From Hyalangium gracile (lineage in GTDB: Bacteria > Myxococcota > Myxococcia > Myxococcales > Myxococcaceae), in NCBI RefSeq assembly GCF_020103725.1, contig NZ_JAHXBG010000030.1, forward strand, positions 100,337-139,861: a stretch of 39,525 nt of DNA, in the 5' to 3' direction. Under the pieces are notes generated by a model that made no database searches, was not told the DNA's origin, and saw only the letters and a program-made list of their open reading frames with translations. This document shows, in pieces, positions 10,493 to 39,525 of this stretch. Numbering within the stretch: the stretch's first letter is position 1; every line of letters begins with the position of its first letter. A program made the translations under genes and the position numbers.

Positions 10493-10618
10493 CTGTTCAG
10501 CCGTCGAAAGCCGTAGTGCCCTCCGGGGCGCATTCCGTCGTGTTGGCACGGTTGCAGCACTTCTCATTCCAGGAGTGCGCGTCTACCTTCGGTCGTCCCT
10601 TCGATGGCAGGAGTTCGC

Positions 10619-13600
10619 ATGAAGGCGTTCCTTCGTTTCGGTGCGCTGGCGGTGGGTGTAGCGCTCACCGCGAGCGGGGTGGGGGAGGCGGCAGCCTCCA
10701 AGAGGGCGGCGAAGAAGCCTCCAGCGGCGGCAGCCAAGGCGGGCGCGACGTCGAAGAAGTCCACGGCCTCCAGGTCCGCGTCCAAGGACGCCGCGACCAG
10801 GCCGGTGTCGGCCATCCCGGGTGAGCCCGAGGAGAAGGAGCGGCGCAACGGCCCCGCGCGGGTGAGCCCGGCCGCCGGCAAGTTCGCCGATCTGCCGCGC
10901 ATCGCCGACAGCAAGAAGGACGCGCTGGCGGACAAGAAGCGCGACGAGGCCATCGAGGGCTTCAAGCGGCTGATCCCGAAGATCCAGGACGGCACCTCGC
11001 GCAAGGCCGACCTCTTGTACCGGCTCTCGGAGCTGTACTGGGAGAAGTCCAAGTACCTCTACCGGCTGGAGATGGACCGGTACCTGGAGGCGGAGAAGAA
11101 GTACGACGCGGCGGTGGCGCGCGGCGAGAAGGTGGAGGCCCCGAAGGAGGACCACCGCGATAGCGAGCGCTACCGCGCGGAGACGATGAGCCTCTACGAG
11201 GACATCCTGCGCGACTATCCGCAGTACGAGCTGCGTGACGAGGTGCTCTTCTCGCAGGCCTACAACCTCCAGGAGCTGAACCGCGGCCCGGAGGCGGTGA
11301 AGCGCTACGAGGAGCTGATCCGCGACTTCCCGAAGTCGCAGTTCGTCCCGGACGCGTACATCCAGCTGGGCAACCACTACTTCGAGAACAACAAGCTCGT
11401 CCCGGCCAAGCAGAACTACGAGAAGGCGCGCGACACGGGCGTGCCGAAGATCTACGCCTACGCCATCTACAAGCTGGCCTGGTGCGACTACAACAGCGGT
11501 GACTACGAGCAGGGCCTCCAGAAGCTGCAGGAGGCGGTGCAGTTCGCGGAGACGCGCGGCGAGGAGCTGGGCGACCTCAAGACGGAGGCGCTCAATGACC
11601 TGACCGTCTTCTTCGTGCAGCTCGATCAGCCCAAGGAGGCCATCGCCTACTTCAAGGCGAAGGCGCCGACGAAGCGGCAGGCGCGGCTCATCTCCAAGAC
11701 GGCGGTGGGGCTGGCGGACGCCGGCCACTTCGACAGCGCGATCCACATGTTCCGCTGGCTCATCGAGGACAAGCCGATGGGGCCGGGCGCGCCCGAGTAC
11801 CAGCAGGCCATCGTCCGGGCCTACGAGGGGCTGCGCCAGCGCACGCAGGTGCGCTCCGAGATGAAGAAGATGGTGGAGCTCTACCGGCCGGGCGGGACGT
11901 GGTGGGAGGCCAACACCGGCAACAAGACGGTGCTGCGCAACGCCTTCAACGTCACCGAGGAGGCCATGCGCGTGATGGTGACGGAGTACCACCAGGAGGC
12001 GCAGAAGACGCGCCAGGTGGAGACCTACCGGCTCGCGCGCGACATCTACAAGGAGTACGTGGACACGTTCGCCTCCAGCAAGGATCCGGAGTTCATCTCG
12101 GACTCGGCCTTCAACCTGCGCTTCTTCTACGCGGAGATCCTCTGGACGCTCGAGGAGTGGGAGGCGGCCGCCGCCCAGTACGACTCCGTGGTGGCGTTCC
12201 AGATCCCGGACCGCGACTCGGCGCGTGAGGTGTCCAACGAGTCCTACCGCAAGAGCGCCTCGTTCGCCGCGGTGCTGGCCTACGACAAGCTGGTGAAGAT
12301 CGAGCGCGGCCAGCTCACCAAGAGCGACCTCAAGGACGGCCAGAAGGTCGACGAGAACAAGTACAAGGGCGACGTCGAGAAGAAGCGCATCGTCAAGAAG
12401 GACGCGAAGGAGCAGCAGGAGCAGCCGCTCACGCGCTTCGAGGAGCGCCTGGTCGCCGCGTGCGACGTCTACAACAAGCTCTATCCGGACAACCCGGACG
12501 AGGTGGACCTGCGCTACCAGGCGGCGGTCATCCTGTATGACCGGAACCACTTCGTGGACGCCGCGCGGCGCTTCGGAGAGATCATCGTCAAGTACCCGGA
12601 GGAGCGGCGCTCGCGGGACGCGGCGGACCTGACCATGTTCGTGCTCGAGAGCCGCGAGGAGTGGTACGAGCTCAACCAGCTGTCGCGCCAGTTCATGGCC
12701 AACAAGAAGCTGACGAAGCCGGGCACCGAGTTCGCCACCCGCGTGGCCAAGGTGGTGGAGGGCAGCCAGTACAAGTGGGTGGATGAGGTCGTCTACCGCA
12801 AGGAGAAGAACCCGAAGAAGGCCGCCGAGCTCTTCCAGGAGTTCGTCACCGAGTTCCCCAAGTCGGAGAACGCGGACCGGGCGCTCACCTACGCGATGAT
12901 CATCTTCCAGGAGGCCGCCGAGCTGGATCGCGGCGTCGAGGCCGGCGAGCGCGTCCTGCGCGAGTATCCGGATAGCGTCTTCAACCTGAAGGTCCGCTAC
13001 ACGCTGGCCGGCTTCTACGAGAAGATGGCCGAGTTCAAGAAGGCCGCCGAGGCGTACGAGGCCTTCGTCGCCGCCTATGACACCGCCACGGGCAACGGCT
13101 CGGGCGCGAAGAAGGGCAAGGGCGCGAAGAAGGCTCCGGCGTCGAAGGTCGCCCAGAGCGGCGGCGAGCGCCAGCAGCTCATCCAGGAGGCCGAGGCGTG
13201 GGTGGCCGACGCGCTCTTCAACGCGGGCCTCTGGTGGGAGGGCGTGGGCGCCTCGCCGAAGGCCATCGCCGCCTACAGCGCGTACATCTCGCGCTTCCGG
13301 GACCGCAAGGACGTGCCGCAGCTGGCCTTCAACATCGCCCTGGTCCACGAGAAGGACGGACGCTGGGAGAGCGCGGCGAAGGCGTTTGCCTCCTTCGCGG
13401 ACACGTACGCGAAGGACTCGCGCACCACCGCCGGCCAGCTCTACCTGGCGAAGTACCGCGAGCTGATGGCGTACCGGCAGCTCAAGAGCCCGCGGGACAT
13501 GGAGCGCGTGCAGGGCGAGCTGGTGCGCGGCTGGGCCCGGCTCTCCGAGGAGGACAAGAAGAACGTCAGCCTGCTGGACGCCTACGCCCACGCTCGCTTC

Positions 13601-14242
13601 CTGGAGCTGGAGTCGCTGTGGAAGCGCTACACGGACATCAAGTTCTCGCGCGTGTCCACCATCCGGAGGGATCTGGCCGCCAAGCAGCGCGAGATCCAGA
13701 AGGTGGAGAAGGAGTACGCGGCGGTGCTGGCCATCGGCTCGGGCGAGTGGGGCATCGCGGCGCTCACCCGGATCGGGCTTGCGTACTCGGACTTCGCTCG
13801 CAACATCCTCGAGTCGCCGGATCCCAAGGGGCTGGATGAGGATCAGCTGGCCATGTACCGCAGCGAGCTCGAGAACCTGGCGCTCCCGCTCGAGGACAAG
13901 TCCACCGAGGCGCTGGAGAAGGCGCTCGACAAGGCCTACGAGCTGTCCATCTACAACGAGTGGACGCTGGCGGCGCAGGACCAGGTGAACAAGTACCGTC
14001 CGGGGGCCTACGCCCAGGTGCGGCAGGTGCCCTTCCGCGGCAGCGAGTTCTTCGCCACCTCGGACGTGGCCAAGGATCCGGGGATGTCGGCCGCCGCCAC
14101 CGCGGGCGCCGCTCCCGCCGCTCCCGCCGCCGCTGGCACTCCGACGCCGGCTCCGGCGACTCCGGAGTCCCAGTCGGCTCCTCAGTCTCCTCCACAGGGC
14201 TCGCCCGCGCCCGCCGCCACGGTGGGGGAGGCCCGGCCGTGA
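10619..14242 (+). CDS. nfsD: Large (~1207 aa) periplasmic TPR-repeat protein with a Pro/Ala-rich C-terminal tail (NfsD/GltD[AgmU]-like)
   Basis: A signal peptide (MKAFLRFGALAVGVALTASG) is followed by repeated TPR motifs throughout (e.g. YIQLGNHYFENNKLVPAKQNYEKA, AIYKLAWCDYNSGDYEQGLQKLQEA) and a C-terminal APAAPAAAGTPTPAPATP tail. Size and position match the ~1200-aa NfsD/GltD. A GCAGGAG RBS precedes the ATG at 10619. Confidence 0.8.
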   Translation: MKAFLRFGALAVGVALTASGVGEAAASKRAAKKPPAAAAKAGATSKKSTASRSASKDAATRPVSAIPGEPEEKERRNGPARVSPAAGKFADLPRIADSKKDALADKKRDEAIEGFKRLIPKIQDGTSRKADLLYRLSELYWEKSKYLYRLEMDRYLEAEKKYDAAVARGEKVEAPKEDHRDSERYRAETMSLYEDILRDYPQYELRDEVLFSQAYNLQELNRGPEAVKRYEELIRDFPKSQFVPDAYIQLGNHYFENNKLVPAKQNYEKARDTGVPKIYAYAIYKLAWCDYNSGDYEQGLQKLQEAVQFAETRGEELGDLKTEALNDLTVFFVQLDQPKEAIAYFKAKAPTKRQARLISKTAVGLADAGHFDSAIHMFRWLIEDKPMGPGAPEYQQAIVRAYEGLRQRTQVRSEMKKMVELYRPGGTWWEANTGNKTVLRNAFNVTEEAMRVMVTEYHQEAQKTRQVETYRLARDIYKEYVDTFASSKDPEFISDSAFNLRFFYAEILWTLEEWEAAAAQYDSVVAFQIPDRDSAREVSNESYRKSASFAAVLAYDKLVKIERGQLTKSDLKDGQKVDENKYKGDVEKKRIVKKDAKEQQEQPLTRFEERLVAACDVYNKLYPDNPDEVDLRYQAAVILYDRNHFVDAARRFGEIIVKYPEERRSRDAADLTMFVLESREEWYELNQLSRQFMANKKLTKPGTEFATRVAKVVEGSQYKWVDEVVYRKEKNPKKAAELFQEFVTEFPKSENADRALTYAMIIFQEAAELDRGVEAGERVLREYPDSVFNLKVRYTLAGFYEKMAEFKKAAEAYEAFVAAYDTATGNGSGAKKGKGAKKAPASKVAQSGGERQQLIQEAEAWVADALFNAGLWWEGVGASPKAIAAYSAYISRFRDRKDVPQLAFNIALVHEKDGRWESAAKAFASFADTYAKDSRTTAGQLYLAKYRELMAYRQLKSPRDMERVQGELVRGWARLSEEDKKNVSLLDAYAHARFLELESLWKRYTDIKFSRVSTIRRDLAAKQREIQKVEKEYAAVLAIGSGEWGIAALTRIGLAYSDFARNILESPDPKGLDEDQLAMYRSELENLALPLEDKSTEALEKALDKAYELSIYNEWTLAAQDQVNKYRPGAYAQVRQVPFRGSEFFATSDVAKDPGMSAAATAGAAPAAPAAAGTPTPAPATPESQSAPQSPPQGSPAPAATVGEARP

Positions 14243-15687
14243 TGCGCACTCCATCCAAGGTACCCGCAGGGAAGACCGCCATGACGATCGCCCGCACGTT
14301 CGCCGCCGCCGCGCTCGCCTTCACGACCGCGTGCGCCAAGGCTCCCCAGGTCAAGCCGTCACCTGTCACCGAGGTGGCGCCCAGGCCGTCGCCGACGCAG
14401 GTGGCTGCTCAGCCCTCCTCGCCCGCGGCGTCGCCCTCGGCGGCTCCGTCGTCCGGGGCCAACGAGTCCGGGACGCACCAGCTGTTCGTGTCGGCGCTCG
14501 CGTCGTTCGACGCGGGGGACTACGACGCCGCGCGCAAGGGCTTCGAGGAGGTGGTGGCCAAGGCCCCGCAGAGCCTCAACGCCCAGTTCAACCTGGGGCT
14601 CATCGCCGAGCGCCAGGGCCGGCTCGCGGATGCCCAGGCGGCCTACGAGAAGGTCCTCTCGGTGGACGCCAACCACCAGCCCTCGCTGCTGAACCTGGGC
14701 CGGCTGTACCGGCTGCAGGACCAGTTCGAGTCCGCCATCAACCTGTACGAGAAGGCGCTGAAGACGCCGGGCCGCGAGCATGACGTGGCGCTGCTCAACA
14801 ACCTCACGGTGGCCTACCGGCTGGCCGGGAAGTTCGAGCAGGCCGAGGCCACCGCCCGGCGCGTGCTGGCGCGCAGCAAGGACAACCCCGAGGCCTACAA
14901 GAACCTGGCCCTCATCTACTACGACCAGGGGCAGTACCGGCTGGCGGAGGTGGTGAGCGCCAACGCGCGCAAGCTCGCGGAGAGCGATCCGGGCGTCTAC
15001 AACAACCTGGGGATGATCTACCTGAAGCTGAACGATCGCTCCCGCGCGCTGGCCCAGTTCCAGAAGGCCGTGTCGCTCGATCAGAAGTTCGCTCCGGGCC
15101 ACCTGAACATCGGCGCCATGGCGCTGGCCTACCGGGACTACCTGGGCGCGGAGCGCTCCTTCGCCAAGGCGGTGGAGCTCGATCCCACCTCCTACGAGGG
15201 CCACCTCTATTACGCCTACGCGCTCGACGGGCAGAAGGGGCGCGACCCGAAGAAGGGGCTCGCGGCGGGCGAGGCCTTCGAGAAGGTGCTCACCCTGCGC
15301 CCCGAGCAGCCGGATGCCGTCTGCGGCGCCGGCTGGGCCTACGCGGCGGACCGGGGCGGCTGGGACAAGGCGCTCGGCTTCCTCGAGCGCTGCAAGGGGC
15401 TGCAGAGCACCTCCGATCAGGACAAGCAGATGATCGAGGCGAAGCTGCAGGGCATCGCGGCCATGAAGAAGAGCGGCGCGCAGCAGCCCGCCGACGAGGA
15501 GAGGAAGGAAGCCACCCCGGCCCAGGGCGGCGACGGTTCGCTGCTCGACAAGGTGTCCGAGGATGCGGCGCGCCAGGAGGGCACTCCTCCCGAGGAGGTG
15601 GCGCCCGCGGGTGATGCGGCCTCCAGCGAGGCTCCGGCGGGCAATGACGCTCCGAGCAGCACGCCTGCTCCCTCTCCTGTCCCGTGA
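14242..15687 (+). CDS. nfsE: TPR-repeat lipoprotein (NfsE/GltE[AglT]-like)
   Basis: Its start overlaps the nfsD stop (ATGA). A lipoprotein-type signal MTIARTFAAAALAFTTAC is present (alternative start 14281). A Pro/Ser-rich linker is followed by 8+ TPR repeats (YDAARKGFEEVVAKAPQSLNAQFNLGLI..., AYKNLALIYYDQGQY...) and an acidic C-terminal tail. Confidence 0.75.
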   Translation: MRTPSKVPAGKTAMTIARTFAAAALAFTTACAKAPQVKPSPVTEVAPRPSPTQVAAQPSSPAASPSAAPSSGANESGTHQLFVSALASFDAGDYDAARKGFEEVVAKAPQSLNAQFNLGLIAERQGRLADAQAAYEKVLSVDANHQPSLLNLGRLYRLQDQFESAINLYEKALKTPGREHDVALLNNLTVAYRLAGKFEQAEATARRVLARSKDNPEAYKNLALIYYDQGQYRLAEVVSANARKLAESDPGVYNNLGMIYLKLNDRSRALAQFQKAVSLDQKFAPGHLNIGAMALAYRDYLGAERSFAKAVELDPTSYEGHLYYAYALDGQKGRDPKKGLAAGEAFEKVLTLRPEQPDAVCGAGWAYAADRGGWDKALGFLERCKGLQSTSDQDKQMIEAKLQGIAAMKKSGAQQPADEERKEATPAQGGDGSLLDKVSEDAARQEGTPPEEVAPAGDAASSEAPAGNDAPSSTPAPSPVP

Positions 15688-33182: not shown

Positions 33183-33572
33183 TCAGCGGATGGGTCCTCC
33201 CGCGCCGGCCGTCCCGCTCTCCCTCGCTACACGGCTCCGCTCGTCGGCCAGCTCCACACGAGCCTGTATGGTGCGTTGGCCCAGTACGTACGGAACCCAC
33301 AGCGCCAACAGCTTCCACACGGCAATACCCGCGTTGGACAGCAGTCGGTCCACCTGTTTCACTCCGTGCTTGCCCTGAGCCCCTCGGGCCAGCGCCACCG
33401 CTTGGCCGATGGCGTACACCGACAGGCTGGCCGCGTGGATGACTCCCAACGTGGCCAGCGCCAGCGACAGCACGCGCTTGGCGTGCAGATCCTCTCCGAA
33501 GAGGCCTTCGAGGCAGGTACGCACCTGCTGCTCAGGGATGGCGGAGGAACTCACCGGCCACGTAGTATGCAC
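33183..33572 (-). pseudogene. Truncated IS4-family transposase N-terminal fragment (remnant)
   Basis: HAKRVLSLALATLGVIHAASLSVYAIGQAVA...HGVKQVDRLLSNAGI matches the conserved N-terminal region of IS4-type DDE transposases. Only ~129 aa are present, and no DDE core follows before the aminotransferase gene. Confidence 0.55.
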
Positions 33573-34032: not shown

Positions 34033-34359
34033 TTAGGATTCTTTTGCTCCAAAGCTGTGATCCCATGCCGAGAGTGTAACGGCGCACTCTTTTTCGAGTT
34101 CGGGCCATTTTCGACGGACTTGATTAAGCACCTCGGTTAGCCGATCGCGGCTATCGTACGGGAAGGAGTCTCGCATCAGTAATGCAATGCGAGCTTTTTC
34201 TATATTGTCTCCTTCTAGCCATTGTTGTCTTGCCGAGATGATTTGGGACGCCATCTCTTCATCGAGGGCCCACATGAGTTCCTCAAGGATCTCCGCAAAG
34301 CCTTGGTCGGGTAGTGCTTGTGCGCGTCTTGAGAAGAGGAAGTCAGCAATGTTCTCCAT
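34033..34359 (-). CDS. Putative immunity protein for the RHS C-terminal toxin (108 aa, acidic)
   Basis: It starts 12 nt downstream of the RHS stop on the same strand, in low-GC DNA (~48-50%). Position and size are typical of polymorphic-toxin immunity genes. No family was recognised. Confidence 0.5.
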   Translation of the reverse strand: MENIADFLFSRRAQALPDQGFAEILEELMWALDEEMASQIISARQQWLEGDNIEKARIALLMRDSFPYDSRDRLTEVLNQVRRKWPELEKECAVTLSAWDHSFGAKES

Positions 34360-34371
34360 TTGGGCTCCTTT

Positions 34372-37300
34372 CTAATTTTTTCGACGATAGGTAGTTGTAG
34401 TTGCCGAAGACGTATTCGACAAGGGTGTTCCCGCAGTCCGTTTGGGGACTCCGAAAGAATGGATTGATTCTAGTGGGGCAGATTCAATGAATTCAAACCC
34501 CGCGTCCTCCGCTACTTCAGGTTTTACTGCCTTGGCGTACTTGTTCGCTGGGGACCCAGAAACCTTTAGCAAGCCGCCTGGTCGCGTGACACGTGCGATT
34601 TCCTGGGATACTGGCCTGAAGCCATAAGGGTTAATGGCATGCACTTCGTCAAAGTATGATGCTGGAAATGGTAGATCGTTCGCATCCGCAACAATATCCA
34701 CCCCGGGAAGTTTCTTGATATCCACGTTGACCGCACCGGTCATCGGGTTATCTCCCGAGCCGAGATTCAGAATGCGCTTGGGATAAGCCCTTGCGAGTGC
34801 CTCATAGCTTTGTGGCAGTTCTCCGTTCTCACCTGCTGCGGCGGCGCTGTGAGCGCTTCCCCCAGATGGACTCTCCGTCGCTTGTGTGACGCTCTCGTGA
34901 ATGGAGCCGAGCCTGCCAGACGTTGCTGTGCTTCCGATGGGCCGCGCCGCCCGAATGGCGGTGCCAGCACCAGTGACTACTTCGGTTGCTCCTTCCTGCA
35001 AGCCATAGGCTGCAGCGTTGCCTAGATCGTCGGCGAGGCCTGCTATAGTGGAGTATGCTTTGCCTAGAACAGCCCCTCCTGCGCCCCCGAGGATAGAGCC
35101 TACTCCAACCTGTATGGAGACCTCGTGCAGGCTTACGGATGCGCGGCGACCGCTGCTGACATCAATGGACTGTGTCACTAGAGAATCACCACCACCCATT
35201 ACGGCCCCGCCAAAAACTCCTCCAATGGCAGTGGCGAGGACAGTTCCTGCGCCTAGGCTGGTGGCTGCTGCTGTTGCGACACCTCCAGTAGCGATTGACA
35301 GTCCAGCAACACCAGCACCTGCAGTACCTGAGAGTGCAACCTGTCCCCATTGAGTTCTCGACGTGGCATCCGAGAACGAAACGGCTTTGTTCTGATCGGC
35401 CTGCTTGAAGAAGTTCAGTTCTGCGCTGATGAGTGCTGCGCCAATGATGATCAGCGGGATGACTTTACCGCTCGGATCGGTGTACACTGCAGGGTTGTTT
35501 GCGGCGTACACGTATCGGTGCAGGTTCGGAGCGGCAGTCGGAATCAATTCGAGCGGGTCTCTGCTGATAAAGCGACCCAGTTCGTTGTCATAGTATCTTG
35601 CTCGTGCGTACGTGAGTTCAGTCTCTACGTCGAACTGGTGCCCCGTATAGCCGAGCTTGAAGTTATCGGCTGAGGGAGCCGTTTCTCCAATGTGACTCCC
35701 CCACACGTCGTACTTCCTTGCGGTCATTACCCTGCCAGTTGTGGAGGTGGCGTCGGACACGCTGCCTAGAGCATCGTTGCTCAGGAAGTTCGTAGTGGTG
35801 CAAATAGACGTGTTGTCGCTAACAGCCAAGGCCTCATGGGCATAGTGATAGCGGCGCATTGCTTGGCGAACTGTGTCTTTTTCTTGGAGAACGAAGTCGT
35901 CATCTAGCACGTACTCGACGTTCTCTAGTGCTGTGCGGCGCCAGGTTCGCTGGAGGTTAGCATCGTAGTCGTAGCGCCCCGTCTCCAGATTGTTGTCGTG
36001 CACCACTGTCAAAGTGTTGCGGATGTCCCATGAGAAGGACCGAATGCGCGAGGAGGAGATGAAGGAGGTGAGATTGCCGTTAGCGTCATAGCTGATTTGA
36101 CGTTCCCTCGAACTGTCCAGTCGATCGGCAAGGCGAATCAGCCAGTCAACACGGTTGAAGGTTCCGGAGGTGTCGCGCGCGAGTTGACCTGCAGGTAGCG
36201 AGTCGAAGGCGTCAGGCCCCAGTGATGAGACAACGGAAGAGGAGGCGTCTCGCTCTCCAATGCGATTGCCGACAGCGTCCAACTGGTAGAGGACCGCGCG
36301 ACCATCTGCGTAGGCTACGCCCGTGAGCCTGTCGAGGGCGTCGTAGCCGTAGGTGGTGGTCTCGGGAGCAGCGATCGACCCTGTATCGGGTCGAGTGCGT
36401 GTCTCTATCTGGCGCAGACGATTGCCATTGAAGTCGTAGACGTAGACGAAGCGACTTCGTAGCGTGCCCTTGGGCGTGCAGTCTTCGGAAACGGCCCCTT
36501 GGGCCAGGACGAGTTGGGTGATTTGGCCAGCAGCGTCATAGCACCGCGTTTCCGTCAAGCCGTTGGGCAGTTCCGTGTTCTTCAGCAGCGAGTCAGGCCA
36601 GTATTTGAAGTAGGTTGTCCCCTCGGGAATCGTCGCTTGGGAGAGCCGGCCTAGCGCGTCGTACTCGTAGTTCGTCGAGATATTGTCCGGATCTGTAATG
36701 CTCTTTCGCCGCCCCGCTGCGTCGTAGGTGAAGGCGATGTTCTTATTCGAAGGGAGTGTGGTGCTCTCAAGCCTGTCGAGCTTGTCGTACGTGTGTGTGG
36801 TGTGCTGCTGAGCGACAGTGCTCGCATCGGTCCGTTTGGTTTCGATGATGTCGGTGAGATTGCCGTTGGCGTCGTACGTGAAACTCTGCGCCTCGATAGA
36901 GGGGAAGGCTCTCGGCAGAGCGTGGTTCGAGTAGGTGCGTGAGGCCAGGCGGTCCAACAATCCATAGACGGAGGCTGTTACTTGCCCCTTGGCGTCGGTG
37001 AAGGTCTTGAGGTTGCCGTTGGCGTCGTACGTCGAGCGCCAGGTAAGGGTCCCCACGTCGGACAGGGTCTCGGCGCCTGGTTCGAAGAGCGGCAGGGTGG
37101 TTCTGTGCGCCGCAGTCAGCCGCAAGTGCGCGTCGAGGTGGACGTGCTCGGCGGTGCGATGGCCGAGTGCATCGAACTCGAACGTCGAGAGGTTCCCGTT
37201 GGCATCCTGCTTCGCCACGAGGTTGCGTGTGGCGTCGTAGACGAAGGAGTAGTGCCCTTCCAGCGCATCGACCACGTCCGTGAGCTTGCCTACCTCGTCA

Positions 37301-39525
37301 TAGGTGTAGCGGGTGACGTGGGTTCCTGTGCAGACCTGATCCCGGATCTGCTCCACCGTGAGGCCCGTCGCCTGACCGTGCCTCAATGTCGGGTGGCCCA
37401 GCGGGCGCTTCACGCACAGAAGGTTGCCCGTGGCGTCATAGGCGCTTGCCGTGACTCGCTCCAGGGCATCCTCGGAGCGCACTTGCCGGTTCAGGTCGTC
37501 GTAGGTCCAGCGGTTCGTGTAGGGCTTGCCTGGGTCTCTCGGGCGCAGTGTGGAGACCAGGTTGCCGACGGCGTCATAGGTGTGCCGGGTTGTTGCCGCT
37601 TCCGGCGTGCCTACTCCTCGTGTCTCCTCCAGCAGTCGACCCGCGGCGTCGTAGCGGTAGCTGCTCGTGTGATGGTTAGGATCGATCCGTGTCACCGCCA
37701 GGCCTGCGGCGTTGTAGGTCGTAGACTCAGTGCGGATCGTGTTGCCGAGGCCTCGCATCTCGTTCACCCGCCGGCCCAGGCCATCATGGAGACGCACGGT
37801 GGGAATCTCGCGCCGGTCCACCAGGGTCTCGCTGCGTGCGGCATCGTCGTACGTATTGGTCTGGGTGTAGCGTGCCGTGGGCTGGTTGATGTCGAAGTCC
37901 TGCTGCTTCGTGAACCTTCCCGCAGCGTCATAGTCGTAGCGGGTCGTGTGTCCCTTGGCATCGCGTGCGACTCGCAGGTTCTGCGCGTCGAAGCGGGACT
38001 CGCGAACATGGTTCAGTGCGTCATGCACGCGCACCTCGCGATGCAGGCCGTCCTGGACGTGAATGGTTTCAAACGTGCGAGCGTCCCGCTCCACCACGCG
38101 AACCAGACCGGTGTCGGTATCAGGCGTATCGAGGTACAGGCGCTCCAGCGTGGTGAGCGGTGTGCCTCCTCGGGAGATGCTCTCCACCAGCCGCTCGAGC
38201 GCCGGCCGGCCCGCGACGTCGTAGCCCGTGGTCCGGACGATGCCGCGACCATCCGTCTGCTGAATGGCGTGACCCTCGCCGTCATAGACGAAGGACTCGA
38301 TGACGCCCATGGGCTTGCGCCGCTCCAACAGCCTCCCCAGCGCGTTGTGCTTCTCCTCGGTGCGTCGGTTCAGCGCGTCCACCTGGGCTGCCAGGTGGCC
38401 GTGACTGTCGTATTCGAAGCGGGTGGTCAGCCCGAGCGCGCTTCCCACGCTCGAGTCATCCGGCGTGCGCCCCAGTGTGCCGCTCGGCTCGCTGGCCGCG
38501 TCCACCGTCTGCTGGTAGGTCCGGTCCAGGTCGTCCTTGAGGACCACCGTCAAGAAGCCGCGGGCATCCTTCGTCGCGACCGCGTTCTGCGCGTCGGCGT
38601 AGGCCATCCGCGTTTCGTAGGTGTCCGTCGCATTCCCCAGGCTCTTGAATGTCTCCTTCACCTCGACGGGACGGTTCAGCCCGTCGTACCGCGCCGTGCG
38701 ACGACGCTGCTCGATGCCTCCCGCCAGCCAGCGCTCCACCTTGGGGTTGCCATTGAGGTCGTATTCGCGTCTCTCCTCTCGGCCCACCGGATCCACCGTG
38801 CGCACGAGTCGGTTGGCGAAGTCGTACTCCATGCGCGTCTCGTGGGCGTTTCCGTCCACACTTCGCGTCTTGTTGCCCACCAGATCGAAGCGCGCGAGTG
38901 TCTCGTAACGCTGAGGTGGCGCATCCATGTCCGGCCCAGGCACGCTCGGGCTCTGCACGCGCACTACGCGATACAGCGAGTCGAGCCCGTAGTTCGTCCG
39001 ATGGCCGTGGATGTCTGTCTCGAAGGCCCGGTTGCCTGCGGCGTCGTAGCCATACGTGGCCACCACGCCCTGCTGCCCCACAATGCCTTCCACTCCATTC
39101 TGCGCCAGGAAGGCACCTCCCACCGCAGGGGCTATGCTCACGCGCACGGGCCGGTCGGCGAAGTCATAGTCCGTCTTCGTCTCGACTCCCCGCCGGTCGG
39201 TGACGCTCACCCGATTGCTGGCCTCGTCGTAGCCGTAGCGCGTCTCGAGCGGGCTCGACAACCCTCCGCCTGACTCCGTGACGCGTGTCACGCGATTCAG
39301 CGCGTCCAAGGTGTAGAGGCGCTCGAAGTGCGTGGCCGGGTGGTACTCTCGGCGGAGCTGGCCTTCGGGGTAGTACTCGCGCTGCTGCACCACCGATGGG
39401 GAGGCGCCCTTGCTGTTCACGCGAATCACGGTGGTGGGGCGGTCCAGTCCGTCGTACTCCTGCAGCGTCTTGTGTCCAAAGGTGTCGGACTCGGACAGCA
39501 AGCGCCCTCTGCCGTCGAACTCCCG
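34372..39525 (-). CDS. RHS/YD-repeat polymorphic toxin (5'-partial; >1715 aa in window) with a C-terminal Gly/Ala-rich hydrophobic segment and a minimal class-I SAM-methyltransferase-like toxin domain
   Basis: Dozens of YD repeats are present (GxxYxYDxxGNL, RYxYD..GRL). The RHS core terminator is RARYYDNELGRFISRDPL...NPAVYTDPSGK. The ~363-aa C-terminal tip contains ILNLGSGDN (motif I), VNVDI, ADANDLPFPASYFDEV (motif II) and VTRPGGLL (motif III). The frame is open to the window end. Confidence 0.85.
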   Translation of the reverse strand, partial: REFDGRGRLLSESDTFGHKTLQEYDGLDRPTTVIRVNSKGASPSVVQQREYYPEGQLRREYHPATHFERLYTLDALNRVTRVTESGGGLSSPLETRYGYDEASNRVSVTDRRGVETKTDYDFADRPVRVSIAPAVGGAFLAQNGVEGIVGQQGVVATYGYDAAGNRAFETDIHGHRTNYGLDSLYRVVRVQSPSVPGPDMDAPPQRYETLARFDLVGNKTRSVDGNAHETRMEYDFANRLVRTVDPVGREERREYDLNGNPKVERWLAGGIEQRRRTARYDGLNRPVEVKETFKSLGNATDTYETRMAYADAQNAVATKDARGFLTVVLKDDLDRTYQQTVDAASEPSGTLGRTPDDSSVGSALGLTTRFEYDSHGHLAAQVDALNRRTEEKHNALGRLLERRKPMGVIESFVYDGEGHAIQQTDGRGIVRTTGYDVAGRPALERLVESISRGGTPLTTLERLYLDTPDTDTGLVRVVERDARTFETIHVQDGLHREVRVHDALNHVRESRFDAQNLRVARDAKGHTTRYDYDAAGRFTKQQDFDINQPTARYTQTNTYDDAARSETLVDRREIPTVRLHDGLGRRVNEMRGLGNTIRTESTTYNAAGLAVTRIDPNHHTSSYRYDAAGRLLEETRGVGTPEAATTRHTYDAVGNLVSTLRPRDPGKPYTNRWTYDDLNRQVRSEDALERVTASAYDATGNLLCVKRPLGHPTLRHGQATGLTVEQIRDQVCTGTHVTRYTYDEVGKLTDVVDALEGHYSFVYDATRNLVAKQDANGNLSTFEFDALGHRTAEHVHLDAHLRLTAAHRTTLPLFEPGAETLSDVGTLTWRSTYDANGNLKTFTDAKGQVTASVYGLLDRLASRTYSNHALPRAFPSIEAQSFTYDANGNLTDIIETKRTDASTVAQQHTTHTYDKLDRLESTTLPSNKNIAFTYDAAGRRKSITDPDNISTNYEYDALGRLSQATIPEGTTYFKYWPDSLLKNTELPNGLTETRCYDAAGQITQLVLAQGAVSEDCTPKGTLRSRFVYVYDFNGNRLRQIETRTRPDTGSIAAPETTTYGYDALDRLTGVAYADGRAVLYQLDAVGNRIGERDASSSVVSSLGPDAFDSLPAGQLARDTSGTFNRVDWLIRLADRLDSSRERQISYDANGNLTSFISSSRIRSFSWDIRNTLTVVHDNNLETGRYDYDANLQRTWRRTALENVEYVLDDDFVLQEKDTVRQAMRRYHYAHEALAVSDNTSICTTTNFLSNDALGSVSDATSTTGRVMTARKYDVWGSHIGETAPSADNFKLGYTGHQFDVETELTYARARYYDNELGRFISRDPLELIPTAAPNLHRYVYAANNPAVYTDPSGKVIPLIIIGAALISAELNFFKQADQNKAVSFSDATSRTQWGQVALSGTAGAGVAGLSIATGGVATAAATSLGAGTVLATAIGGVFGGAVMGGGDSLVTQSIDVSSGRRASVSLHEVSIQVGVGSILGGAGGAVLGKAYSTIAGLADDLGNAAAYGLQEGATEVVTGAGTAIRAARPIGSTATSGRLGSIHESVTQATESPSGGSAHSAAAAGENGELPQSYEALARAYPKRILNLGSGDNPMTGAVNVDIKKLPGVDIVADANDLPFPASYFDEVHAINPYGFRPVSQEIARVTRPGGLLKVSGSPANKYAKAVKPEVAEDAGFEFIESAPLESIHSFGVPKRTAGTPLSNTSSATTTTYRRKN

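Follow-up and report, generated by a model that had tools for sequence, protein, structure and literature searches.

The RHS frame and its C-terminal tip

The window analyzed in this work, the whole stretch of 39,525 nucleotides of Hyalangium gracile taken from contig NZ_JAHXBG010000030.1 (positions 100,337 to 139,861 of the forward strand), carries on its minus strand a gene for an RHS protein whose C-terminal tip resembles a methyltransferase, and directly downstream a small gene that is predicted to encode the cognate immunity protein. The RHS frame comprises 1709 open codons (34372..39501, minus strand) and remains open up to the window edge, therefore the true N-terminus of the protein lies outside the window. 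Pfam RHS_repeat matches this open reading frame (ORF) in 20 stretches (expectation value, E, 1.3e-76), and from these matches and the translation, residues 1-1346 of the frame were assigned to the repeat shell (35464..39501, minus strand). The shell terminus reads ...RDPLELIPTAAPNLHRYVYAANNPAVYTDPSGK, and its last residue, K1346, corresponds to window position 35464. The C-terminal core end, read from the sequence (35467..35559, minus strand), has two D-P motifs (DPLEL...x...TDPSG) in the arrangement RDPLEL-x22-TDPSGK, the first of which has E where the DPxG motif has G; in homologous carriers, too, a DPxG boundary of this kind stands before the linker. From what is known of Rhs proteins, this core end is the expected site of demarcation and autoproteolysis. 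Exactly 363 residues follow K1346 (35463..34375), divided in a first part of 226 residues and a domain of 137, and the frame ends at a TAG codon (34372-34374).

An earlier note on this DNA, made from the letters alone, had described an RHS frame with a tip of about 363 residues after ...YTDPSGK, and had seen in this tip the motifs of a methyltransferase; the frame and the tip length are borne out, and the observation of a methyltransferase-like RHS tip is confirmed. The results described below support the view that the tip is an RHS toxin with a minimal methyltransferase fold, acquired together with the downstream gene, and that it represents a payload not previously described.

Conserved motifs of the terminal domain

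The last 137 residues of the tip (34375..34785, minus strand) make up the candidate toxin domain, for which phmmer, Pfam, hhalign, the family alignment, AlphaFold2 and Foldseek point to a minimal class I S-adenosylmethionine (SAM)-dependent methyltransferase fold. The four strings on which the methyltransferase proposal had been founded, ILNLGSGDN, VNVDI, ADANDLPFPASYFDEV and ARVTRPGGLL, are all found here and in the order given for them. A block of about 100 residues had been proposed, and a domain of methyltransferase type is indeed present, but the conserved domain is larger, about 137 residues; similarly, the strings occur, but the numbering of the motifs was loose and the most telling element, NP-(Y/F)-G (HAINPYGF in this copy), had not been singled out. 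From the family alignment, ILNLGSGDN was assigned to motif I, that is, strand 1 and the Gly loop (34747..34773, minus strand), strand 1 of the AlphaFold2 model lying immediately before; alignment and model together place VNVDI in strand 2 (34717..34731, minus strand) and INPYGF at the end of strand 4 (34618..34635, minus strand).

Conservation was counted over an alignment of 55 diverse family members, and residues are given in domain numbering. Five residues are invariant (G9, G11, N20, P53 and N81) and eight more are conserved in at least 90% of the members (N7, N13, A18, D22, N52, P58, G96 and G119); the window copy retains every one of them. On the AlphaFold2 model, G9 and G11 make up the loop of motif I, which comes after the strand 14-17, and D22 lies at the C-terminal end of the strand 28-31 (strand 2), where it is aligned to the NVD of the Methyltransf_11 protein P0176; an acidic residue at the end of strand 2 is the ribose-binding position of class I methyltransferases. 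The segment (A/G)-D-A follows strand 3, N52-P53-(Y/F)-G stands at the end of strand 4, at the position of motif IV (the substrate or base pocket of methyltransferases), and N81 is in the loop after strand 5. The conserved positions of the family coincide with those that serve the cofactor and the active site in class I methyltransferases. The domain is also basic, with a median isoelectric point (pI) of 8.9 in the family. The motif IV tetrapeptide of the amino-methyltransferases, (D/N/S)-P-P-(Y/F/W), was not found in the family, which has N-P-(Y/F)-G instead; given that this element has one Pro only and yet matches the position of motif IV, it denotes a mechanistic resemblance to the amino-methyltransferases and not membership in that group.

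Sequence kinship with methyltransferases

When the 137-residue domain is compared alone with Pfam Methyltransf_11 it scores 21.5 bits (E 3.8e-4) against a cut-off of 21.2, and the whole 363-residue tip stays under this cut-off with 19.2 bits (E 0.002). A phmmer search with the domain against 1.84 billion representative proteins returned 574 matches at E<=1e-3, 86 of which at E<=1e-10. Among the significant matches, at E 1e-8 to 1e-6, there are free-standing proteins of 144-192 residues (e.g. P0113, E 1.2e-8, and P0128, 8.7e-8) which score 33.7-52.2 bits on Methyltransf_11 and are clear members of this family. In a database of 5.8 billion sequences, the profile built from the 55 members detects the Polyangiaceae protein P0176 (E 6e-7), annotated as 'methyltransferase domain-containing protein', and hhalign aligns the family profile with P0176 from motif I to strand 5 with a probability of 98.6% (E 1.2e-15). 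Taken singly, 23 of the 55 members match Methyltransf_11 at E<=0.1. Against the sequences of the PDB, the profile gave 18 matches at E<=1, all weak, 17 of which are methyltransferases or proteins with the methyltransferase fold. On these sequence comparisons, the resemblance to methyltransferases goes beyond chance.

The free-standing relatives of Methyltransf_11/23 type (e.g. P0176, P0113 and P0128) share with the domain the layout LNLGSGxxxxPGAxNVD...VV.D...LPF...sFDEVha...rVLkPGG. They differ from it in the usual ...EHL helix after strand 4 and in their C-terminal half; in contrast, in the toxin family NP(Y/F)GFNP replaces this helix, and the strand 6-strand 7 region is its own. The free-standing proteins are not C-terminal tips and, as far as seen, they have no partner gene. 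Since the compressed link between strands 1 and 2 (LNLGSGxxxxPGAxNVD) is already present in these small free-standing relatives, they are a likely evolutionary source, and from sequence the small free-standing Methyltransf_11 proteins are the likely ancestors of the toxin domain. The free-standing proteins in which the same short link was observed are P0113, P0115, P0128, P0133, P0135, P0139, P0149, P0150 and P0176.

No significant sequence homology was detected with the Kam/NpmA 16S ribosomal RNA (rRNA) m1A1408 methyltransferases (hhalign against NpmA, 3% probability), nor a significant sequence link to the (D/N)PPY amino-methyltransferases (tRNA m2G10 methyltransferase, E 0.04). Weak local alignments place the NP(Y/F)G loop on the FPWG of NpmA and on the D-Y-P-Y motif IV of the tRNA m2G10 methyltransferase. 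In NpmA, the Trp of FPWG stacks on the flipped-out adenine. Given that both alignments are non-significant, a nucleic-acid substrate with a flipped-out base is a lead rather than a demonstration.

Predicted fold of the domain

A model of the domain was built with AlphaFold2 from the last 146 residues of the tip. As the earlier note had anticipated, it has a methyltransferase fold (mean predicted local distance difference test, pLDDT, 85.9; predicted TM-score 0.82), and the expected profile and structure matches of the end of the tip were also obtained, Methyltransf_11 at threshold and methyltransferase structures with Foldseek. The tip was not placed in a known toxin family; methyltransferase models were the only ones matched. 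The structure matches were methyltransferases only, the best being the rRNA 1-methyladenosine (m1A) enzymes RRP8 and NpmA/KamB, and the highest query-normalised TM-score, 0.68, corresponds to the A1408 methyltransferase UncKam (7jlz). Structure comparison recognised the methyltransferase fold, a seven-stranded sheet with the strand 6-strand 7 hairpin, and the best superpositions that span the whole domain, including strands 6 and 7, were with rRNA base methyltransferases. Proteins with the same fold and other chemistry, MccD and the cyclase SpnF, are also among the structural neighbours.

The model is strongly reduced. Strands 1, 2 and 3 are connected by short loops, helices A and B are absent, and just two short helices are left, before strands 5 and 6. 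The connection between strands 6 and 7 is a long conserved loop, modelled with low confidence (pLDDT ~50). Sequence and model together show a class I SAM-methyltransferase fold that is genuine, albeit very compact, and for which binding of SAM and methyl transfer are predicted.

Carriers and distribution

Among the best 150 cluster representatives, the full domain is present in 122, and in 109 the match ends within 12 residues of the protein C-terminus. The carriers are diverse; the RHS proteins include SpvB/TcdB-type RHS, DUF6531-RHS and subtilase-RHS forms, a Paenibacillus protein carries the pre-toxin TG domain, and in other carriers ...VLVHN, with a HINT-like look, stands directly before the domain. 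On the 35-kb plasmid pJMUB3934p1 of Leptotrichia wadei, the domain is the extreme C-terminus of a haemagglutinin-repeat (CdiA-like) protein (locus L027, 3001-3411). A 182-residue hypothetical protein comes after this haemagglutinin-repeat protein. With respect to the window protein, RHS bodies are about 25% identical and tips 45-61% identical. These sequence comparisons support the idea that the domain is a variable C-terminal toxin module common to otherwise unrelated carriers.

The genome scan for related loci was made with the 10 closest sequences, and it found matches in Desulfobacterales, Janthinobacterium, Microbulbifer, an alphaproteobacterial metagenome-assembled genome (MAG), Myxococcales/Polyangium, many actinomycetes, Gemmatimonadales and Chitinophaga; further bearers of the domain belong to Clostridiales, Paenibacillus and Cronobacter. 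In total, the domain extends over eight phyla or more (Myxococcota, Pseudomonadota, Desulfobacterota, Actinomycetota, Bacillota, Bacteroidota, Fusobacteriota and Gemmatimonadota).

Copies separated from a carrier were also found. In six metagenome contigs (L001-L006), a start-less copy of the domain is located together with the partner gene 3' of a full SpvB/TcdB/RHS gene. This orphan cassette (e.g. L001, 7980-8771) lies about 3 kb downstream of the RHS gene, with two unannotated ORFs (279 and 424 residues) in between; the ORF called for it, of 122 residues, begins at an internal Met, and the motif I sequence LNLGSGRNP can be read in frame upstream, past a stop codon. In the alphaproteobacterial MAG (L014, 6721-7098), a second copy of the domain starts exactly where the immunity gene finishes; it is 5'-truncated, is devoid of motif I and strand 2, and has stop codons before it, so that it looks like the relic of a displaced tip. 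One candidate, a giant repeat protein of 5310 residues (P0043; E 2.8e-20 in 10 stretches), gave 42 very weak repeat matches when re-scored, and was excluded as a false positive produced by its repeats.

Neither Pfam (2025) nor NCBIfam (2026) has a model for the domain or for its partner, and no match to a curated toxin or immunity family was obtained. In the source databases the family entries appear as 'hypothetical protein', or the carrier part alone is named (RHS repeats, pre-toxin TG).

The downstream gene and predicted immunity

The gene located directly downstream of the toxin (34033..34359, minus strand) encodes an acidic, all-helical, HEAT-like protein of 108 residues, which is predicted to be the cognate immunity protein from its conserved position, its pI and its AlphaFold2 model. 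A ribosome-binding site, AAGGAG, was read from the sequence (34365..34370, minus strand); it begins 2 nucleotides past the toxin stop codon and ends 5 nucleotides ahead of the ATG of the partner, within a gap of 12 nucleotides. Homologues of the partner are present directly 3' of the toxin domain in 13 of the 20 genome loci and in all six metagenome loci. The partner starts 13 nucleotides past the end of the domain match in the six metagenome loci, and 3-62 nucleotides past it in the genome loci with the exception of two, one in which the called ORF overlaps the domain end and another in which the start is 169 nucleotides downstream. Seven genome loci are devoid of the partner, and in four of these the toxin matches are truncated. 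Given that homologues follow the domain directly in 13 of 20 genomes, the 108-residue protein is the predicted immunity protein; and since the partner accompanies the methyltransferase domain whatever the carrier or the linker, this domain would be the entity that needs neutralisation.

The 108-residue protein shows 30% identity with a metagenome homologue (E 2e-22), and the pI of the partner family is 4.4-5.1. The AlphaFold2 model of the partner (pLDDT 92) has a HEAT-like fold and corresponds to a soluble protein without a membrane helix; the sequence has no match in Pfam, NCBIfam or the PDB sequences. As modelled, the partner has the appearance expected of an inhibitor that binds a cytoplasmic enzyme toxin stoichiometrically, and given that it has neither a membrane segment nor an enzyme fold, it is unlikely to be a demethylase. 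The partner of Actinomadura flavalba (L012, 6393-7061), of 222 residues, resembles the immunity domain duplicated in tandem. The 108-residue protein (P0177) has 100% identity with an NCBI 'hypothetical protein' of Hyalangium gracile, and an 80-residue relative that is 73% identical to it (P0203) is located on another NCBI contig.

The Gly/Ala-rich linker

The first 226 residues of the tip (34786..35463, minus strand) constitute a linker recognised by hydropathy and composition. The earlier note had described here a Gly/Ala-rich hydrophobic segment with GxxxG spacing, and this description holds; the linker has 19% Ala and 17% Gly, Kyte-Doolittle hydrophobic segments at tip residues 1-22, 42-93 and 115-134 (about 35398-35463, 35185-35340 and 35062-35121), and seven GxxxG spacings. 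Its length, from the DPxG end to the domain, spans 3-391 residues across the family carriers, and about one third of the family linkers hold comparable hydrophobic Gly/Ala-rich stretches. The linker has no match in Pfam or NCBIfam, and a phmmer search of its 226 residues against the linkers of other family members returned the self match only; therefore, its interpretation as a translocation domain specific to the family and conserved in it was abandoned.

Membrane-depolarising toxins with glycine zippers have been documented on Rhs, LXG and CdiA carriers (PMC9637101, PMC10684867, PMC12744356, PMC11630599). Given that in Tse5-CT, EsxX and some CdiA-CTs the glycine-zipper segments form toxic pores, a membrane role of the linker is plausible; by analogy, it may insert in the membrane or translocate the enzyme, or it may have a second activity, and it cannot be the defining toxin of the family. 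As in Tse5-CT, EsxX and the ionophoric CdiA-CTs, there is a hydrophobic Gly/Ala-rich stretch with GxxxG, here in the first 134 residues of the tip; unlike in them, an enzyme domain comes after the segment and the partner is soluble and not a membrane protein. This likeness is one of composition and spacing, homology to these toxins being neither tested nor detected.

Base composition and neighbouring genes

The GC content at third codon positions falls from 0.64-0.89 in the RHS core to 0.43-0.55 in the tip, with a sharp break at the core/tip junction. Overall GC declines from about codon 900, and it is 59% in the linker, 51% in the methyltransferase domain and 50.5% in the downstream gene. A drop in GC from the RHS body to the tip and the downstream gene had been noted before; it is present, and the low values of the domain and its partner as well as the break in third positions agree with it, but there is no single GC step and the linker is still at 59%. 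The proposal that the tip and the downstream gene were brought in together as a displaced toxin/immunity module is supported by the break in third positions and by the co-inherited partner. About 460 bp downstream of the immunity gene, tblastn identified an N-terminal fragment (~80-90 residues) of an IS4-family transposase (33186-33572, minus strand; 59% identity to ISAs18-family transposases, E 4e-25), which probably marks the edge of the acquired cassette. No Pfam or NCBIfam match was obtained for the ORFs, this fragment among them, that separate the immunity gene from the aminotransferase gene.

The remaining window genes that were checked are housekeeping genes, encoding BipA, a sigma-54 activator, a TPR protein and the aminotransferase. 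Long antisense 'shadow' ORFs were also observed, among them one at 36982-39273 (plus strand) and the pair at 10583-14254 (minus strand) and 10604-14242 (plus strand), as expected at 67% GC; given that only one strand of each pair has Pfam matches, they are no evidence of overlapping genes.

Proposed mechanism and alternative explanations

The mechanism that we propose is as follows. The RHS shell would enclose the 363-residue tip, which would be released at the DPxG core end. The toxic part would be the last 137 residues, a stripped-down class I SAM-dependent methyltransferase which appears to have kept the elements for SAM binding (the Gly loop that follows strand 1, the Asp with which strand 2 ends and the (A/G)-D-A segment that comes behind strand 3), to have lost the helices between strands 1, 2 and 3, and to have the invariant N-P-(Y/F)-G loop in place of the usual helix after strand 4. 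Inside the rival, the domain would use the SAM of the victim to methylate an essential cytoplasmic target, preferentially a base in rRNA, tRNA or DNA. The hydrophobic Gly/Ala-rich linker may help the tip to reach or cross the inner membrane of the target cell, and the producer would be shielded by the adjacent acidic HEAT-like protein, most likely by one-to-one binding and blocking. That the released domain binds the SAM of the victim and methylates an essential cytoplasmic target, while a HEAT-like binder protects the producer, is in our opinion probable. A nucleic-acid base is favoured as the target because the nearest folds are rRNA adenine-N1 methyltransferases, NP(Y/F)G is at the base-stacking position of motif IV, and the charge pattern fits; from the models, methylation of a nucleic-acid base is our best guess for the chemistry. 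Considerably more tentative is the idea that these proteins are the first interbacterial toxins that kill by methylation, 'enzymatic alkylating agents' of about 135 residues that would methylate a base on its base-pairing face, with a HEAT-like inhibitor in the producer. If so, the targets could be a critical position of rRNA or tRNA, or RNA and DNA broadly (lesions of the m1A or 3-methylcytosine, m3C, type), or the toxin could trigger the methylation-dependent restriction enzymes of the victim.

Several points weigh against this proposal. The loop that joins strands 6 and 7, which probably takes part in substrate binding, has a pLDDT of ~50 in the model, and to our knowledge the domain is smaller than any methyltransferase that is active; given that helices A and B and an N-terminal lid are missing, its binding of SAM might be poor, or its ligand might be a different one. 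The sequence links to nucleic-acid methyltransferases are not significant (3% for NpmA; E 0.04 for the m2G10 enzyme), and the strongest sequence relatives are Methyltransf_11-type enzymes, which usually act on small molecules. In addition, methylation is not obviously lethal, and we know of no antibacterial toxin that acts in this way. The N-terminus of the RHS protein, which would indicate its delivery route, is beyond the window edge.

The closest sequence relatives (Methyltransf_11, Methyltransf_25 and UbiE-type) would fit as well an active methyltransferase toxin directed to a protein (e.g. a translation factor or a division protein), a small molecule or a lipid, and the hydrophobic linker could hold such an enzyme at the membrane. 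We consider this a serious alternative, albeit a less likely one, in view of the NP(Y/F)G that replaces the post-strand-4 helix (...EHL) of the small-molecule Methyltransf_11 enzymes, and of the best whole-domain superpositions, which are with rRNA base methyltransferases; a basic domain with an acidic immunity protein is also common among nucleic-acid-binding toxins, albeit not diagnostic. It could also be argued that the fold kills without methylating, by destroying or sequestering SAM or by transferring an aminocarboxypropyl or adenosyl group, given that the SAM-binding motifs are conserved, that MccD and SpnF are among the structural neighbours, and that the invariant or near-invariant N20, N52 and N81 are not standard catalytic residues of methyltransferases. 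However, the enzymes known to degrade SAM, the phage SAM lyases, are folded differently, stoichiometric sequestration of SAM by an injected protein would hardly lower its pool, and the conserved loops that follow strands 4 and 5, as well as the one joining strands 6 and 7, resemble a pocket for a macromolecule or substrate more than a hydrolytic site, which makes this explanation improbable.

That the linker is the real killer, a glycine-zipper pore-former or ionophore like Tse5-CT, EsxX and the ionophoric CdiA-CTs, with an accessory or inactive methyltransferase-like domain, seems quite improbable to us. Its hydrophobic segments with GxxxG, the documented glycine-zipper toxins of other Rhs, LXG and CdiA carriers and the Gly/Ala-rich hydrophobic linkers of other family carriers speak for it; nonetheless, the linker is not conserved, being reduced to 3 residues in P0020 and absent from the orphan cassettes, while the domain and the partner gene travel together. 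Moreover, the immunity proteins to pore-formers are usually membrane proteins, whereas this partner is soluble and has no membrane helix, and the cofactor-site residues of the domain are under strong purifying selection. The extreme reduction of the domain, the frequent orphan and truncated copies in the family and the IS4 remnant nearby are, for their part, what would be expected if the domain were a pseudo-enzyme whose toxicity came from binding a cellular partner tightly, or a decayed, non-functional relic in this genome. This is very improbable, since the domain copy in the window continues a long, undamaged RHS frame, keeps all invariant and near-invariant residues, and is followed by a ribosome-binding site in a suitable position and by a partner gene that is intact; furthermore, conservation is concentrated on loops of catalytic type and not on a surface patch.

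The proposal of a methyltransferase toxin thus stands as a well-supported prediction of a new toxic chemistry, in which both the activity and the target are predicted from sequence and models. The warheads known from polymorphic toxins act by cutting nucleic acids or cell walls, by deamination or ADP-ribosylation, by destroying or misusing nucleotide cofactors (e.g. NAD+ and ATP), or by forming pores; if the prediction is true, a SAM-dependent methyltransferase warhead would be a new chemical way of killing, and it would raise the question of which single methyl group kills a bacterium, the answer to which might reveal a new vulnerable site in the ribosome or tRNA. A widespread family without prior description suggests that bacteria may also kill their rivals by methylating something essential. 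The domain is about the smallest class I methyltransferase-like fold known to us, and its size could make it attractive for studies of enzyme minimalism and useful as a tool. Pfam-style models of the toxin and its immunity partner would improve the annotation of many genomes.

Comparison with known systems

The earlier note did not recognise a methyltransferase tip as a described RHS payload, and this assessment is borne out by the absence of a corresponding toxin family in Pfam and NCBIfam and of a precedent in the literature found. The reference catalogue of polymorphic toxins of Zhang et al. 2012 includes no methyltransferase toxin, its sole 'methylase' referring to restriction-modification enzymes. 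A full-text literature search, which leaves most subscription journals outside, found no antibacterial methyltransferase toxin, and a description elsewhere is possible; in the papers found on Rhs proteins or type VI secretion systems (T6SS), methyltransferases are mentioned incidentally, with the exception of the in-silico candidate Tfe7. The only precedents found, methyltransferases shown or proposed to enter another cell as the toxin described here would, are secreted effectors aimed at the eukaryotic host, such as NleE (PMC4239114), and Tfe7 of Pseudomonas fluorescens F113, an in-silico T6SS candidate homologous to RlmD (PMC7970981). In contrast to this toxin, NleE has a different fold, host-protein targets and no immunity protein, whereas Tfe7 is a full-length enzyme of housekeeping type, predicted from gene position only, with no immunity gene and no polymorphic-toxin tip.

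RRP8/nucleomethylin (2zfu) and the 16S A1408 enzymes of aminoglycoside resistance NpmA, KamB, NpmB1 and UncKam (3p2e, 3mq2, 7ehf, 7jlz) are, like the domain, small single-domain proteins, and NpmA has an aromatic residue after the Pro at the end of strand 4 (FPWG), at the same position as in the NPYG of the toxin. In contrast, enzymes of the RRP8/NpmA type have about 205-220 residues, with helices A and B and N-terminal elements, and they protect or mature ribosomes rather than kill.

The type of system, an RHS shell with a C-terminal tip and an immunity gene, is classical; the class of warhead is not. The closest parallels in organization are Tre23, which ADP-ribosylates 23S rRNA (PMC8661411), Tre-Tu, which ADP-ribosylates EF-Tu (PMC9825190), and TreThr, which modifies tRNA (PMC13617354); all have an Rhs shell, a C-terminal enzyme tip beyond the DPxG end and, next to the toxin gene, one for immunity. 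These toxins kill by adding to an essential macromolecule a group taken from an abundant cofactor, as is proposed here; they do it with an ADP-ribosyltransferase fold and NAD+, whereas in the system of Hyalangium gracile the fold is Rossmann-like, of methyltransferase type, and the cofactor would be SAM.

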